Shown in pieces: positions 22,056-31,320 of a stretch of DNA of 64,000 nt. Within the stretch, counting starts at the first letter, position 1. Each line of letters begins with the position of its first letter. The stretch spans positions 12,958,001 through 13,022,000 of the forward strand of contig OZ024749.1 of NCBI GenBank assembly GCA_964016885.1, written 5' to 3'. Position numbers and translations under genes: made by a program. Origin of the DNA: Eledone cirrhosa (taxonomy: Eukaryota). The notes under the pieces are model-generated. The model saw nothing but the letters and a program-made list of their open reading frames with translations. It made no database searches and was not told the origin of the DNA.

Positions 22056-22376
<321 letters not shown>

Positions 22377-22593: not shown

Positions 22594-22620
<27 letters not shown>

Positions 22621-22629
<9 letters not shown>

Positions 22630-23085
22630 AGTGTAATTTTCTACACAAAACGAAGGTTATAGAGAAAATTGAGGTTGGTAATGGCACATGGAATATATAA
22701 GAGACAGAATACTTTTTTGTGAAAAAACATAATTTTATAAGGTAAGGTAATAATAAAGGGTATAAAAAATGACCGGTTTCGATGGGTCTGCAAAAGCCAT
22801 CTTTTCAAATGTTGATTAATATTAAGAAAAATTAATAATACGAAGAGTTAAAATTTGAGACTTGAAAATTCAAGTATAAAATTCATTGTGGGATTTCATA
22901 GCAGTTTTCATCTAGGTAGCAACAACAGGTTGACTGCTGTGTCCCTTTCTGGTAGTGAATGAGAAGTTATTTGGGGTGTGGGTTATTTTATAAAGGTCAG
23001 ATTTAGCAATAGCCAGCTGCTGGTCAGTGAGGGGGTGGAAGCAATATACACACACATACCTTCATCCACACATACATACACATAC

Positions 23086-23120
<35 letters not shown>
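22621..23120 (-). repeat. 3' pseudo-LTR of PLE-1
   Basis: Appears identical by eye to 27382-27884. Confidence 0.92.
22765..22814 (-). ncRNA. Minimal hammerhead ribozyme (U3-A8 core variant) in the 3' pLTR
   Basis: Reverse complement: TTGAAAA-gatgg-cttttgcagac-ccatc-GAAA-ccgg-TC. 5-bp stem II, palindromic CCGG stem III, GUC triplet. Stem I is weak. Confidence 0.7.
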
Positions 23121-23132
<12 letters not shown>

Positions 23133-23847: not shown

Positions 23848-26124
23848 CTATTGGGGTGATAACCCGTTTAGTTTTGGTTTAAATTTGTTAAGGAATAGAT
23901 TTTCTTTGTTTATTCTTTGTTGTTGTGTGAACGAATCTGAGCACTTGTAGAAGGGGAAGATTTTAAAGTTGGGTAGTGTCATTCCTGCGCAGTTCGCAAT
24001 ATGGCTGCTCAAGGGGATTTTTCTTGTGTTAGCGTCCCGGATTTGTTGGCGGTGGATGGTCATTCTTTTGCGTAATGAGGTGCCCGTCTGTCCTATGTAG
24101 TTGTGTTTGCACCCACCGCAAGTTATTGCGTAAATCAAGTTCTCCGAGTTGCAGGTGAAATTGTTTTTTACTGTAAATGTTTGGCCATCTTTGAATGTAA
24201 ATGTTTGTCCTTCAGTGAGGTAGAGGCACGTTCCACAGTTTGTTCTACCACATTTGGTAACTGTAGGGTTGAGGATTGGTTTGGGTATATTTGGTCCAGT
24301 GAGAATGCGTTTAAGTGATTTGGGTTGTCTTTTACTTTTAAGGATCTTGTGTGTTTCAAGAATAGACTTCATTTTTGCATCTTTAAGTAGGATGGGGAGG
24401 TTTTTGTGTAGGTGATCAAACATTTCGGTATTTCTGGGGTTGAAAGTGGATACATATGGCAGGGTGTTGAGTGTGGTTTTCTGTTTTGGATTGTTAAGTT
24501 GATGGGGATTTAGGTGTTTTGCCCTGTCTATTCCATTGTTGATTATTTCAAGTGGAAAGGCTCTTAAGATAAGGGTGTCTTTTAGTTCCTTTAGTCTTTG
24601 CTCCCGTTTAGGTGGATCTGATACTATGGTACATACACGTTTGGCCAAATTGTAAGGAATGTTAAGTTTTGTATGTTTTGGGTGACTTGATGTGAAAAAG
24701 AGGTATTGCTTGGAATCTGTGGGTTTATAGAATATATCTGTATCTAATTTCCCGTCTATTACAGAGATGAGAATATCCAAGAAGGCTAATTCCTTAGGAT
24801 TGGATTCCATTGTGAATTGTATGTTATTATCTATGTTGTTTATCATGTTTTTAAACGTAGTAAGTGAGTTCATGTCTTCTTGCCATAGGATAAAGCAGTC
24901 GTCTAGATATCTTTTCCAATTGGCTTTGAGGTGTGTGTGGAAAGAGTCTCCAAATAAGAGAAGGGACTGACTGTATATTTGTTGTTCATGGAATCCCATG
25001 ACTAGGTTGGCATATGTGGGTGCTACTTTCGTGCCCATTGCCGTACCTGATACTTGTCTGTATGTTGAACCATTGAATGTGAAGTAGTTATTTTGTAGGA
25101 TAAAGCGGAGTCCGTCAGTGATAAAATCTGTGTTGATGCGTGTCGGTATTTCTGATGGGTGTGTGTTAAGCCAGTATTGGACTGCTGTTATTCCATAGTT
25201 GTGAGGTATGTTTGTGTAGAGGTTTATTACGTCAAAGGAGACAAGAATTGTATTTGCACTTACTGTTTTAGGGAGGTGTTTCAGCATGTCAAGGTCATCT
25301 CGTATGTAGCTCTGTATATGTTGTAGAAAGGGTTTCAGTAGGATGTCCAGAAAGTTGCTAAGTCTGTGGGTTTCACATGTAGGGCCTGCTATAATTGGCC
25401 TGAGTTTTAGGTCTTCTGGTGGTGTTAGTTCAATGTAATTGTTGGTTGAGGTGTCACATGCATCGTTTATGGGTTTACATTTGTGAAGTTTCGGTAAGCC
25501 GTAAAAAGAGCTTGTATTGCATTTGAAGTGGCTTATATAGTTAAACTCTTTTGTGGTTAAGCTGTTGCGGTATTTATTCAGTAAGGTCAAAAGGTTCCCC
25601 ATTGTTTTGGTGTGTTTGTAGTTTTCTGTTTTTTCATAGTATGTGTTGTTTTCTAAAATGTTAAGTGCGAGGGTCCTATAGTAGTCCGTATTCATAATCA
25701 CAACAGTACTGCCTTTATCGGCTTCTTTGATAGTTATCTCAGGGTTGTTTCTAAGTGTGAATAATTCTTCCCATTCGTGTGTAGATAGGTTTGATTTCGT
25801 GTGTTTATTTGTAATTGTTTCATAGGGAAAGTTGGTGATGTGTTCGCAGTACGTGTCCAGTGCTTTATTTCTTCCCTTTTGTGGGCAGAAATTGCTTTTA
25901 TTTCTAACCAGTGATTCGTCTTCAGTGTTGGTGTCGTTGTGGAAGAATTCCGTTAGTCGCAGCTTTCGGCAGTATTCCATGATGTCATCCTTCATTTCGG
26001 GGAAGTTTGGTTTACGTGGTGTAGGTGTAAATTTCAGGCCCTTACTTAAAATGTTGATTTGTGTGTTGGTTAGAGGTGTCTTTGAGAGGTTGATTATTTT
26101 TGGTTTCTCCTGAGGGGGGGCCAT
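23848..26124 (-). CDS. PLE ORF2: reverse transcriptase + Cys-rich linker + GIY-YIG endonuclease (758 aa from ATG; may be translated as an ORF1 fusion)
   Basis: RT motifs ADKGSTVVIM, FYGLPKLHK, LRPII, SFDVINLYTNIP, GTAMGTKVAPTYANL, WKRYLDDCF, FLDI and KPTD...SSHP. Linker CGRTNCGTC. Endonuclease LIYAITCGGC..NYIGQT..R..H..H..E. No stops. Confidence 0.96.
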   Translation of the reverse strand: MAPPQEKPKIINLSKTPLTNTQINILSKGLKFTPTPRKPNFPEMKDDIMEYCRKLRLTEFFHNDTNTEDESLVRNKSNFCPQKGRNKALDTYCEHITNFPYETITNKHTKSNLSTHEWEELFTLRNNPEITIKEADKGSTVVIMNTDYYRTLALNILENNTYYEKTENYKHTKTMGNLLTLLNKYRNSLTTKEFNYISHFKCNTSSFYGLPKLHKCKPINDACDTSTNNYIELTPPEDLKLRPIIAGPTCETHRLSNFLDILLKPFLQHIQSYIRDDLDMLKHLPKTVSANTILVSFDVINLYTNIPHNYGITAVQYWLNTHPSEIPTRINTDFITDGLRFILQNNYFTFNGSTYRQVSGTAMGTKVAPTYANLVMGFHEQQIYSQSLLLFGDSFHTHLKANWKRYLDDCFILWQEDMNSLTTFKNMINNIDNNIQFTMESNPKELAFLDILISVIDGKLDTDIFYKPTDSKQYLFFTSSHPKHTKLNIPYNLAKRVCTIVSDPPKREQRLKELKDTLILRAFPLEIINNGIDRAKHLNPHQLNNPKQKTTLNTLPYVSTFNPRNTEMFDHLHKNLPILLKDAKMKSILETHKILKSKRQPKSLKRILTGPNIPKPILNPTVTKCGRTNCGTCLYLTEGQTFTFKDGQTFTVKNNFTCNSENLIYAITCGGCKHNYIGQTGTSLRKRMTIHRQQIRDANTRKIPLSSHIANCAGMTLPNFKIFPFYKCSDSFTQQQRINKENLFLNKFKPKLNGLSPQ

Positions 26125-27359
26125 CGAGTATCCTGGTATTTCAGGCTTTTCCCTAAAAAAGGAATGTAGTTTTGTGTGTGATTATATTTTGTTGGTCTGT
26201 TGCGTGTGGGTCTGTAGCTTGTTGTTTCATGAGGGTGAATGTGATGGTGGGGGTGGTATGTGTTGTGGTTGTTGATGAGCAAGGGTTCTGTTGTTGGTTC
26301 ATGTGGTCTGGGTGCGTTATTTCTGTGGTACAGAGTGTTGAGGCTGGGGGGTTGTCTTTTGTTGGATTGAGGGTGATGTCTGGTGTGGTTGTGGGTAAGT
26401 TCTGTTGTGATTTCAAGTGGCCTGGGTGGATTTCTTCTGAGGAATGTGGTGTGTGTGTTGTGAGTTGGATCTATGTTATTTCGTCGTTGGTTTATGTAGG
26501 GGGCATTTCTACGGAAACCTGTGTTGTGGTGGTTGGGTGTGTTTCTTTTGGTGTAGTTGGCCGTATTTGGTTTGTGTTGGTGGGGGATGTGCCTGTGGTT
26601 AGTGTGTGTTGGGTTTGGTGGTGTAAATGTGTCTGTTGTAGTTCTTGTTATGTTCAAATGCTTTATAAAGGGGTTACCTGTTTGGTGCGTCCTTTTAAAG
26701 TCTTCTTCATATTTGAGGAACCAGTTTTCGGATTTTTCCCACCGTTTAAGGGAAATGGTTTCTGCATTCTCGCAGTCCTGTTTCCACGATTTGATTAAAT
26801 TTTGTAGGGTTGTTCCCTCGGCCTTTTTAGTGCATTCTTCCTCCATATTTTTATCAGTATCCTTATACTCTTGCTCGTTTGAGGTGGCCCTTAATTTTAG
26901 GAGTTCTATTTCCATGTTTATCCTGTTGAGTGACATTTGTTCACGGAGTTTTCTTTCTGGTTCAGGTTCGTTTGTAATATGCTTTATTTGGAATTTACGT
27001 GGTAAAACTATCGGTGTTGAGTTAATCCATTTTTGGTAAATTCCAGCTTTGTTGAGGTTTTTTATCATATTCCAGAAAGTGAATTTTCTGGTTTTTAGAT
27101 GTTTTTTCCAGAGGTGTCCCATTTGGTTTTTGATATGGAGCAATGTCGTTTGTTCTGTGTTGGTATTCATAAGTTTTTCGATGGAGTTGCATACGTTTTG
27201 AACGTTTAAATAAATTTGGTTGTCAGTCGGTGTGGTGGTTTGGGGTATATCCTGTTTTTTTGTCAGAATGGTGAGTTTTCCATTTATCTCTTTTAGGATT
27301 TTCAGGATTTCCTCATTGATATTGGAGTTTGAAGTGGTGTTGTCTTGTTCCAGTGCCAT
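26094..27359 (-). CDS. PLE ORF1: 421-aa protein with helical/coiled-coil N-terminal two-thirds and a His/Asn/Thr/Pro/Arg-rich disordered tail; function unknown
   Basis: Long non-repetitive ORF starting ~22 nt after the 5' pLTR and overlapping ORF2. Heptad-like segments ILKILKEINGKLTIL and LNRINMEIELLKLRA. Confidence 0.85.
   Translation of the reverse strand: MALEQDNTTSNSNINEEILKILKEINGKLTILTKKQDIPQTTTPTDNQIYLNVQNVCNSIEKLMNTNTEQTTLLHIKNQMGHLWKKHLKTRKFTFWNMIKNLNKAGIYQKWINSTPIVLPRKFQIKHITNEPEPERKLREQMSLNRINMEIELLKLRATSNEQEYKDTDKNMEEECTKKAEGTTLQNLIKSWKQDCENAETISLKRWEKSENWFLKYEEDFKRTHQTGNPFIKHLNITRTTTDTFTPPNPTHTNHRHIPHQHKPNTANYTKRNTPNHHNTGFRRNAPYINQRRNNIDPTHNTHTTFLRRNPPRPLEITTELTHNHTRHHPQSNKRQPPSLNTLYHRNNAPRPHEPTTEPLLINNHNTYHPHHHIHPHETTSYRPTRNRPTKYNHTQNYIPFLGKSLKYQDTRWPPLRRNQK
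26154..26160 (-). promoter_or_regulatory. Candidate -1 ribosomal frameshift slippery heptamer U UUU UUA
   Basis: ORF1 reads CCT TTT TTA GGG AAA (PFLGK). The -1 frame TTT TTT AGG GAA AAG CCT GAA ATA CCA GGA TAC TCG ATG is open into ORF2. Confidence 0.7.
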
Positions 27360-27381: not shown

Positions 27382-27848
27382 TATATATGAAAAGTGTAAT
27401 TTTCTACACAAAACGAAGGTTATAGAGAAAATTGAGGTTGGTAATGGCACATGGAATATATAAGAGACAGAATACTTTTTTGTGAAAAAACATAATTTTA
27501 TAAGGTAAGGTAATAATAAAGGGTATAAAAAATGACCGGTTTCGATGGGTCTGCAAAAGCCATCTTTTCAAATGTTGATTAATATTAAGAAAAATTAATA
27601 ATACGAAGAGTTAAAATTTGAGACTTGAAAATTCAAGTATAAAATTCATTGTGGGATTTCATAGCAGTTTTCATCTAGGTAGCAACAACAGGTTGACTGC
27701 TGTGTCCCTTTCTGGTAGTGAATGAGAAGTTATTTGGGGTGTGGGTTATTTTATAAAGGTCAGATTTAGCAATAGCCAGCTGCTGGTCAGTGAGGGGGTG
27801 GAAGCAATATACACACACATACCTTCATCCACACATACATACACATAC

Positions 27849-27884
<36 letters not shown>
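27382..27884 (-). repeat. 5' pseudo-LTR of PLE-1 (direct), with a hammerhead copy at about 27528-27577
   Basis: Direct repeat of 22621-23120, truncated in the internal TA microsatellite. Confidence 0.92.
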
Positions 27885-27888
<4 letters not shown>

Positions 27889-28229
27889 CTAAATCTGACC
27901 TTTATAAAATAACCCACACCCCAAATAACTTCTCATTCACTACCAGAAAGGGACACAGCAGTCAACCTGTTGTTGCTACCTAGATGAAAACTGCTATGAA
28001 ATCCCACAATGAATTTTATACTTGAATTTTCAAGTCTCAAATTTTAACTCTTCGTATTATTAATTTTTCTTAATATTAATCAACATTTGAAAAGATGGCT
28101 TTTGCAGACCCATCGAAACCGGTCATTTTTTATACCCTTTATTATTACCTTACCTTATAAAATTATGTTTTTTCACAAAAAAGTATTCTGTCTCTTATAT
28201 ATTCCATGTGCCATTACCAACCTCAATTT

Positions 28230-28234
<5 letters not shown>
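27884..28234 (+). repeat. Inverted pseudo-LTR of PLE-1, with a hammerhead copy at about 28082-28130
   Basis: Reverse complement of 27424-27774. ttgaaaagatgg...ccatcgaaaccggtc is readable on the plus strand. Confidence 0.92.
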
Positions 28235-31271: not shown

Positions 31272-31320
31272 TTCACTTGATAAGATGGAGTACAATAATA
31301 CATCGAAACCGGTTGTATTT
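31272..31320 (+). ncRNA. Minimal hammerhead-like motif (U3-A8 variant) in a PLE pLTR remnant
   Basis: TTGATAA-gatg...catc-GAAA-ccgg-TT. Same architecture as the PLE-1 ribozyme, with a GUU triplet. Confidence 0.55.

Follow-up and report, generated by a model that had tools for sequence, protein, structure and literature searches.

The window analysed here, 64,000 nucleotides of Eledone cirrhosa DNA (GCA_964016885.1, contig OZ024749.1, positions 12,958,001 to 13,022,000), carries a retroelement in which a first open reading frame (ORF1) precedes a reverse transcriptase (RT) frame with a C-terminal GIY-YIG endonuclease (EN) (Table 1). As the preliminary description had it, ORF1 is intact and lies within pLTR boundaries; it runs from ATG to TAA with no stop inside, and the two direct pLTRs around it are 100% identical. 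We also observe cysteines between GIY and YIG in the EN. The RT with C-terminal GIY-YIG, these cysteines and the CX2-5CxxC linker (defined for Neptune and Nematis in PMC8557442) are shared with the Neptune EN+ PLEs of the available text of that source, as are direct and inverted pLTRs, a hammerhead-like core and microsatellite flanks; together, these motifs point to a Neptune-type EN+ PLE. The putative hammerhead-like cores match the U3-A8 variant known for PLEs from the accessible part of PMC4209133, and an Rfam search returned 77 matches at E≤1, none of them a hammerhead and all below gathering scores. Copies of the element are dispersed over many chromosomes.

Table 1. Positions of the element's features in the window.
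Feature	Positions	Strand	Basis
ORF1, 421 aa, ATG to TAA	26094..27359	-	ORF reading
ORF1 aa 10-79, two predicted amphipathic coiled-coil-like helices	27123..27332	-	AF2 (H10-35, H46-79)
ORF1 aa 76-233, core with three long helices (predicted), conserved	26661..27134	-	AF2, alignment; dN/dS 0.09-0.20
ORF1 aa 241-421, basic low-complexity tail, sequence weakly constrained	26097..26639	-	Net charge +18
RT + GIY-YIG frame, 777 codons stop to stop	23848..26181	-	Pfam RVT_1, E 4.6e-7
CX2-5CxxC linker (C-x4-C-xx-C), as in Neptune/Nematis	24226..24252	-	Sequence
GIY-YIG core (LIY...C-xx-C...YIG)	24091..24138	-	Sequence
Candidate slippery heptamer T TTT TTA in ORF1 phase (F401-L402), RT opening in -1	26154..26160	-	Sequence, six families
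In-frame ATG of RT frame, in the window's family only among six examined	26122..26124	-	12 codons past heptamer
C7 run, length unstable across genomic copies	26114..26120	-	Copy comparison
5' direct pLTR, ending 22 nt ahead of ORF1 ATG	27382..27886	-	505 bp, 100% identical to 22619-23123
Inverted partial pLTR, 5' end	27884..28234	+	351 bp, 100% complementary
3' pLTR, then (TA)n microsatellite	22619..23123	-	Sequence
Minimal hammerhead-like core, U3-A8 variant (putative)	27534..27571	-	Pattern match
Hammerhead-like core, further copy (putative)	22771-22808	-	Pattern match
Hammerhead-like core, further copy (putative)	28087-28124	+	Pattern match

A young Neptune-type family has ORF1 as its conserved first gene

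ORF1 is a genuine conserved first gene of a young Neptune-type PLE family. Searching the genome with ORF1 gave 2498 candidate places, of which 150 were scored and matched, the top ones among these at 100% identity with the same 427-codon open frame. Homologues form an unnamed family of 812 clusters at 50% identity (E≤0.001), and dN/dS is 0.09-0.20 in five of six comparisons of the N-terminal and core parts, the sixth being saturated. The genomic copies with their open frame, the dN/dS values and the clusters together show that ORF1 is no chance frame, and purifying selection on it is confirmed. Linkage to an RT, which had been set beforehand as a test, was found at 84 of 90 ORF1 loci (RT at most 1.5 kb downstream). 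A word-based search with residues 1-240 returned one homologue only.

ORF1 had been described as lacking any named domain, and Pfam indeed returns no family for it at E≤1. Across 150 family members the same database gave 20 families with one member apiece, and no RRM/CTD, capsid fold or CCHC knuckle family. Outside the genome, a metagenome scan gave no match with ORF1 patterns and two loci with RT patterns, one with ORF1 (L091) and one without (L092), and viral contigs gave no ORF1-type match.

The RT relatives carry PF00078 and PF01541, and the CX2-5CxxC linker pattern is present in all of the best 120. These 120 all measure 641-803 aa in a search that admitted 416-1325 aa, which lends support to the earlier proposal that the element could define a PLE subgroup.

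The junction between ORF1 and the RT frame

ORF1 overlaps the RT frame by 88 nt, with the RT in -1. Two overlapping ORFs are present in six families, in contrast to the canonical description of EN+ PLEs, Neptune included, as single-ORF elements (Craig et al. 2021, PMC8557442, in its available text). In families A (that of the window), B, C, D and E of the E. cirrhosa genome, and in the outside record L091, T TTT TTA stands in ORF1 phase and the RT opens in -1; families D and E were found via an RT query and not via ORF1, and the ORF1 cores of families B-E are 28-55% identical to that of family A. Families A and C have no other run of six T on the sense strand, and this one is kept in 94 of the 100 listed family-A copies. 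An assembly error at the junction is excluded: independent short-read contigs from runs X1 and X2 (depth ~840) span it without a gap (26122/26152-26742), and T6 recurs in the copies.

At the protein level the heptamer reads FL, and this dipeptide occurs within the last 45 residues of 65 of 78 ORF1 homologues of at least 340 aa, compared with 3.4 (maximum 10) in shuffled tails and with 2 and 3 in two windows further up. The preceding residue is K, Q, E, M or W in none of the 65, although these residues make up 22% of the tails; since their codons cannot end in T, this absence supports the heptamer. FL is missing from the other 13 homologues, one of which (P0068) runs in frame into RT-like sequence. 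A canonical X XXY YYZ heptamer thus lies in the upstream frame with the downstream ORF open in -1, from which we infer frameshifting at U UUU UUA.

The canonical stimulatory hairpin or pseudoknot 5-9 nt downstream was not found in five sequences, and no conserved structure was detected 3' of the heptamer in these (z -1.95 to +1.30), the sole value near -2 belonging to a copy that bears a deletion; this test covered local RNA structure. The ORF1 stop follows the heptamer by 19 codons in the window's family and by 19, 20, 10, 31 and 23 codons across the five families of the genome. Among the 65 homologues with FL, whose relatedness makes p-values for this too strong, the spacing is never below 10 codons and exactly 10 in 20, a value that fits one of the five families. 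An explanation of the stop as a by-product of the RT's KII codons fits families A, B and D and fails for C, E and L091.

The lack of a stimulatory structure would also suit an RT made separately: as with LINE ORF2, its translation would begin close to where ORF1 ends, through reinitiation or internal initiation, and the U-run would be kept for another reason. The RT's KIIN motif does have an in-frame ATG ahead of it in the window's family and also in the sister subfamily, and a start is called upstream of the IINLS motif in 50 of the best 120 RT relatives, so that reinitiation may contribute. Against this, the remaining 70 have no such called start by the same motif test, and no ATG precedes KIIN in five of the six families with DNA-level data: in families B-E, 14-134 residues separate KIIN from the first Met that follows it, and L091 has none in its 96 available codons. 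Reinitiation also leaves the phased FL of 65 of 78 homologues unexplained, and we regard it as unlikely.

RNA polymerase slippage on T6 would predict the same -1 layout with no need of a downstream structure, the added U turning a minority of transcripts into one fused ORF. A T7 run was seen in one contig of run X4, at a depth of 4.9, and may be an error. Slipped RNAs would be copied, so T7 would be expected in new insertions, and its absence from all 100 listed family-A copies counts against slippage, as does the conservation of the Leu codon and of ORF1 phase, neither of which pure slippage needs. This makes slippage quite improbable.

An intron within ORF1 could join its 5' part to the RT frame if TTTTTTAG, present in families A-D and in L091, served as a 3' splice site, and introns are known in PLEs (PMC8557442, available text). 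Family E, however, reads TTTTTTAAC in all three copies, without the splice AG, and in 19 of the 65 homologues the codon after FL cannot begin with G. Families A, B and C have no phase-2 GT donor in common, and a splice site has no reason to hold ORF1 phase; splicing is very unlikely.

Finally, the window's copy could come from a frame-broken subfamily of an ordinary single-ORF PLE, moved in trans, with ORF1 as its N-terminal extension. In-frame ORF1-RT copies of 1049-1181 codons do exist, with open frames above 1000 aa in 7 of 150 listed family-A copies; two of family D (L093, L094) also have open frames above 1000 aa. The in-frame copies arise from length changes of the C7 run, which occur on differing SNP backgrounds, and of 53 length variants 19 fuse the frames, 12 keep them and 22 break them, with no preference (p=0.23); the single-ORF copies stem from independent homopolymer slips. 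In addition, the window's closest copies have two ORFs, the frame offset is common to six independent families and the best 120 RT relatives all stay within 803 aa. Among 7992 candidates, a search for fused forms of 969-2765 aa found none, which is weak evidence.

In favour of this reading, the genome also holds a family with one frame only, whose N-terminal region is short and helical (L095, L102). When this one family was compared with the ORF1 core, hhalign gave a probability of 0.1-0.3%, equalled by 111 of 500 shuffles; the best local alignment pairs conserved Pro loops, and both regions are predicted to be helical, the single-ORF one at pLDDT 55. An ESM Atlas search with the latter yielded leads below 0.8 only. 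In this comparison of low power with one family, ORF1 shows no significant match to the N-terminal part of a single-ORF PLE; none of the three outcomes that the preliminary description had named as refuting was thus observed. The single-ORF reading is already largely refuted, and we consider it extremely improbable.

Predicted structure and role of ORF1

The AF2 model of ORF1 (pLDDT 91.4, pTM 0.76) has five helices and no strand of three or more residues; the predicted protein is a long helical bundle with a basic low-complexity tail behind it. The helices first described as heptad-rich are present in the prediction, with moderate heptads: a/d positions are hydrophobic at 5/8, 6/10, 5/10, 5/14 and 3/12 in the five helices. 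Residues 10-79 gave only generic coiled-coil matches among PDB sequences (best E 0.0009). The aromatic and basic core motifs quoted earlier are present, and W84, R91, P120, E131, R139, D169, W192, E200 and S203 of the core are each shared by 90% or more of the homologues in the alignment. The tail, said to be rich in His, Asn, Arg and Pro, is T/P/N/H/R-rich over residues 241-421. Its dN/dS is 0.79 against one sister copy, and the last 150 residues are net positive in 76 of 78 homologues.

Foldseek with the ORF1 model returned no match at E≤0.001 in PDB and BFVD, and the ESM Atlas no usable one. A VIA fold search found generic helical bundles (best Z 9.0-9.1) that barely cover residues before ~55, the best match being a three-helix bundle (Z 9.0, rmsd 6.4 over 124 residues). 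RRM/CTD, capsid and knuckle folds are absent from the fold-search lists, although a remote link may exist. This architecture is consistent with the oligomerising RNA-binding or chaperone protein suggested in the preliminary description, and the composition of the tail makes it likely that ORF1p coats or packages the element RNA.

Known systems and a proposed mechanism

LINE-1 ORF1p, encoded upstream of the RT/EN ORF, combines a coiled-coil N-terminus and a basic region with an RRM and a CTD, and LINE ORF2 is translated as a protein of its own and not by frameshift. ORF1 shares with it a coiled-coil-like N-terminus, a basic region and the place upstream of RT/EN; unlike LINE-1 ORF1p, no RRM or CTD is predicted in it. 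The HIV-1 frameshift site requires a stem-loop, whereas none follows the heptamer in the window, and ORF1 lacks both a Gag domain and a zinc knuckle. HIV-1 gag-pol, in the accessible part of PMC6547452, does share with the window's family the heptamer U UUU UUA, read as FLG in the 0 frame and FFR in the -1 frame, and the layout of a structural-type ORF upstream and an enzyme downstream. The heptamer likeness is convergent. By analogy, the window's organisation probably follows retroviral Gag/Gag-Pol logic and not LINE ORF1/ORF2 logic.

The PLE clade with an ORF1 frameshift and a pseudoknot is Athena. As far as the available sources describe them, the window's element resembles Athena/Terminons in that a coiled-coil-like ORF1 precedes a PLE RT, with an apparent frameshift between; unlike them, it includes EN in its RT frame, lies dispersed instead of at telomeres and yielded no pseudoknot. 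Within its available text, PMC6431247 reserves two ORFs to PLEs without EN (Athena/Terminons), and the Fig. 1 legend of PMC8557442 gives a PLE ORF1 as separable by frameshift with a pseudoknot (CC, coiled-coil), leaving the clade unstated. Unlike the Neptune elements in the same partial sources, the window's element has a separate ORF1, of 400-450 aa in its family, overlapping the RT in -1 at a conserved heptamer. Upstream ORF1s have been described for Chlamys-2/-5_cBra of Chara braunii, bearing a zinc knuckle of gag-like type (PMC8557442), and for the Fundulus Neptune repeat.CL27 (420 nt, non-overlapping, uncharacterised; PMC12602865); the available parts of these texts mention no frameshift for them. 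A literature search with Repbase and subscription journals outside its coverage found no description of frameshifting in EN+ PLEs.

We consider it rather likely that the window holds a two-ORF Neptune-type PLE in which a -1 frameshift yields free ORF1p and a minor ORF1-RT-EN fusion, the basic tail coating the RNA. ORF1 would then probably occur both on its own, as a free protein, and as the N-terminal part of the fusion. Most ribosomes would stop at the end of ORF1 and release the 421-aa protein, while for a minority a -1 slip at U UUU UUA would lead to an ORF1-RT-endonuclease fusion of ~1170 aa, leaving ORF1p in excess over RT. The ORF1p tail would bind the element RNA, and self-association of ORF1 may draw the fusion into the particle as Gag draws Gag-Pol. 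Because no RNA structure follows the heptamer, we tentatively propose that the pause could be caused by termination of a preceding ribosome at the ORF1 stop, which in many relatives lies 10 codons past the heptamer. A broader and rather doubtful extension is a large EN+ PLE lineage whose structural proteins would be a family apart, without kinship to Gag or LINE ORF1p. These proteins would form a particle around the element RNA and incorporate RT by way of the -1 fusion. Ribosomes queued behind a terminating one would trigger the slip without RNA structure, the distance from the heptamer to the ORF1 stop being about one (or two) ribosome lengths.

Among retroelements, EN+ PLEs stand closest to telomerase, and the question is how their RNA-protein complex assembles. 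This assembly becomes testable with a conserved ORF1 family that has a confident structural model and with copies that are young and intact. If the frameshift is true, consensus proteins of this lineage that start at the RT miss 400 residues at their N terminus, and studies of translation would gain a useful natural system in which frameshifting is controlled without a stem-loop.

Element layout and the ORF1 protein family

The preliminary description placed an intact ORF (ORF1) within the pseudo-LTR (pLTR) boundaries of a Penelope-like element (PLE), and this is borne out, with ORF1 flanked by two identical direct pLTRs of 505 bp each and an inverted pLTR copy of 351 bp at the element's 5' end. 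By pattern match, every pLTR of the element contains a minimal U3-A8-type hammerhead-like core, a variant known from PLEs (PMC4209133, accessible part). Downstream of ORF1 lies an intact 777-codon frame comprising RT, a CX4CxxC linker and a GIY-YIG endonuclease (EN), and it is from these sequence motifs that we assign the element to Neptune or Nematis, following the definitions in the accessible part of PMC8557442. The genome of Eledone cirrhosa is 3.0 Gb in size and rich in microsatellites. Elsewhere in the window, a further hammerhead-like core of the same type is found in a different pLTR-like fragment, a near-perfect hairpin adjoining the 3' pLTR probably represents the inverted ends of another repeat, and a tandem satellite comprises ~87 units of 95-97% identity.

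Features of the element and its surroundings, in window coordinates
Feature	Position	Strand	Basis
ORF1, intact, 421 aa	26094-27359	-	frame reading
RT frame, RT + GIY-YIG	23848-26181	-	
Heptamer	26160-26154	-	
C7 run	26114-26120	-	
Overlap after the heptamer	26097-26153	-	comparison with copy L048
Further U3-A8 hammerhead-like core	31277-31314	+	
Hairpin, ~98 nt	22271-22368		
Second PLE-like element	41990-44417	+	motifs
Tandem satellite, 79 bp	from 1		

ORF1 is a genuine protein gene and belongs to a conserved, unnamed family. Near-identical copies are abundant in the genome (best, 100% identical; 150 scored of 2498 candidates), and a profile built from four sequences matches 812 clusters at 50% identity, 396 of them at E<=1e-10. 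Homologues measure at most 553 aa among the 150 matches listed of these 812 clusters, and the 10 checked for names are called only "hypothetical protein." Purifying selection, which the preliminary description had set as a test, is evident in the N-terminal part or core, with dN/dS of 0.09-0.20 in five between-family comparisons and saturation in a sixth; for the tail, a single comparison yields 0.79. This tail is basic and of low complexity, as it is in 76 of 78 long homologues. For residues 1-240, AlphaFold2 (150 sequences) predicts five long helices (pLDDT, 91.4), and the best structural matches of the model are generic three-helix bundles (rmsd 6.4 over 124 residues; Z 9.0, low enough for the search tool itself to advise caution with helical bundles).

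The junction between ORF1 and RT

The RT frame is -1 relative to ORF1, with an 88-nt overlap, and residues F401-L402 of ORF1 are encoded at T TTT TTA, the same heptamer as in HIV-1 gag-pol (PMC6547452, accessible part). We observe this heptamer in the same phase and offset in an outside record (L091) and in four further families of the genome (B to E, with D and E recovered by an RT query), whose ORF1 cores are 51, 55, 33, and 28% identical to that of the window. Individual copies deviate from heptamer or offset (L034, L045, and L047), and L046 is decayed. FL is present within the last 45 residues of 65 of the 78 homologues that, among the 150 listed, reach 340 aa or more (shuffles, 3.4; maximum, 10), counts that are not independent trials because the homologues share descent, and the preceding residue is compatible with a T-ending codon in every case. 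The ORF1 stop lies at least 10 codons from the heptamer in all 65 homologues and exactly 10 in 20 of them; the spacing in the genome's own families, however, is 19, 20, 10, 31, and 23 codons.

Since phase, offset, and heptamer are all explained at once, -1 ribosomal frameshifting at the heptamer is our best reading of how RT is made, and the sequences lead us to regard it as quite probable, even though the lack of a conserved hairpin or pseudoknot downstream of the heptamer counts against it. A ribosome terminating at the ORF1 stop may serve as the block behind which the slip occurs; stop position can tune -1 frameshifting in SARS-CoV-2, via a different proposed route (PMC8168617, accessible part). 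For some elements, RT may instead be translated by reinitiation, since 50 of 120 RT relatives have a called start ahead of KIIN, the first conserved motif of the RT frame. The window's family has an ATG there; however, it is the sole exception, and the other five of six families have none. Splicing at the junction could also join RT to ORF1, but family E lacks an AG in 3 of 3 copies, an AG is impossible in this phase for 19 of 65 homologues, and there is no phase-2 donor in common among families A, B, and C.

Among 100 junctions listed of 188 in family A, the window's own, 94 have T6, 5 a substitution, 1 T5, and none T7 (counted by eye). Polymerase slippage would yield fused transcripts, but no T7 copy appears among the listed insertions. 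Two runs of a single sample yield contigs that confirm the window's frame at a depth of ~840, and T7 is seen in one contig of another run at a depth of 4.9. Frames exceeding 1000 codons occur in 7 of 150 listed copies, all seven due to a lengthened C-run 30 nt downstream, on differing SNP backgrounds. Of 173 C-runs, 100 were listed, and 47 of these match the reference in length; the remaining 53 leave 19 frames fused, 12 unchanged, and 22 broken. Because the fused ORF1-RT copies arise on different backgrounds and the length variants are split in this way, the fused copies look like decay products rather than a master element. Length changes of the C7 run affect 53 of 100 listed copies, mostly those where the preceding G is C, and extend it to more than 20 C in some; the nearby T6 changes length in 1 of 100. 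Compared with L048, the overlap after the heptamer retains LKYQDTRWPPL unchanged in the ORF1 frame and is altered in the RT frame, and DTRW is retained in family B; selection may act separately on the short end of ORF1.

A two-ORF variant of EN+ PLEs

Linkage of ORF1 homologues to a PLE RT, also set as a test, holds for 84 of the 90 loci that match ORF1, each with an RT N-terminus on the same strand no more than 1.5 kb away. The other six lack such an RT, and the one inspected (L047) is interrupted by other sequence past the junction. All of the best 120 RT relatives measure 641-803 aa (length window allowed, 416-1325 aa), and the ORF1 profile found no match in them. Six RT relatives (P0170, P0200, P0203, P0212, P0260, and P0273; 44-49% identical) are filed under clam bacterial symbionts and are likely host DNA in those assemblies. 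One ORF1 homologue, P0068, continues in frame into RT-like N-terminal sequence and may be either a broken copy or a variant in which the two are fused.

A single ORF is what PMC8557442 (accessible part) gives for canonical EN+ PLEs, whereas two overlapping ORFs are present here, with RT in -1. The accessible part of PMC6431247 assigns two ORFs only to PLEs without EN, whereas here GIY-YIG lies in the RT frame. The Fig. 1 legend of PMC8557442 describes an ORF1 set apart by a frameshift with a pseudoknot, the clade being unnamed, and a fish Neptune has an uncharacterised ORF1 of 420 nt (PMC12602865, accessible part). The accessible parts of PMC5408684, PMC3846280, PMC4700185, and PMC5718144 contain nothing on this junction. 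No description of such a junction was found in the literature searched; Repbase and two Athena papers lay beyond the search's reach and could affect novelty.

The genome also harbors a single-frame PLE family (L095, L102, L096, L097, and L112; RT 27-29% identical), again with the CX4CxxC linker, in which the place of ORF1 is taken by an N-terminal region that is short and helical and by a proline-rich spacer. The second PLE-like element in the window has two overlapping frames (539 and 274 aa) without a Pfam match and, from its RVRWKA, KADKT, and WFNP motifs, is presumably a Hydra-type PLE.

The short helical N-terminal region found in single-ORF PLEs could conceivably be a remote relative of ORF1. 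For the role of ORF1, Gag/Gag-Pol and LINE ORF1p serve as analogues. On the basis of this likeness, together with position, frameshift-implied stoichiometry, and architecture, we lean toward a model in which ORF1p would be produced in excess over RT, its basic tail would bind the element's RNA, and its helices would self-associate, drawing in the ORF1-RT-EN fusion. As the preliminary description had proposed, ORF1 could define a PLE subgroup, and its family likely distinguishes an EN+ PLE variant that has two ORFs and probably uses frameshifting.
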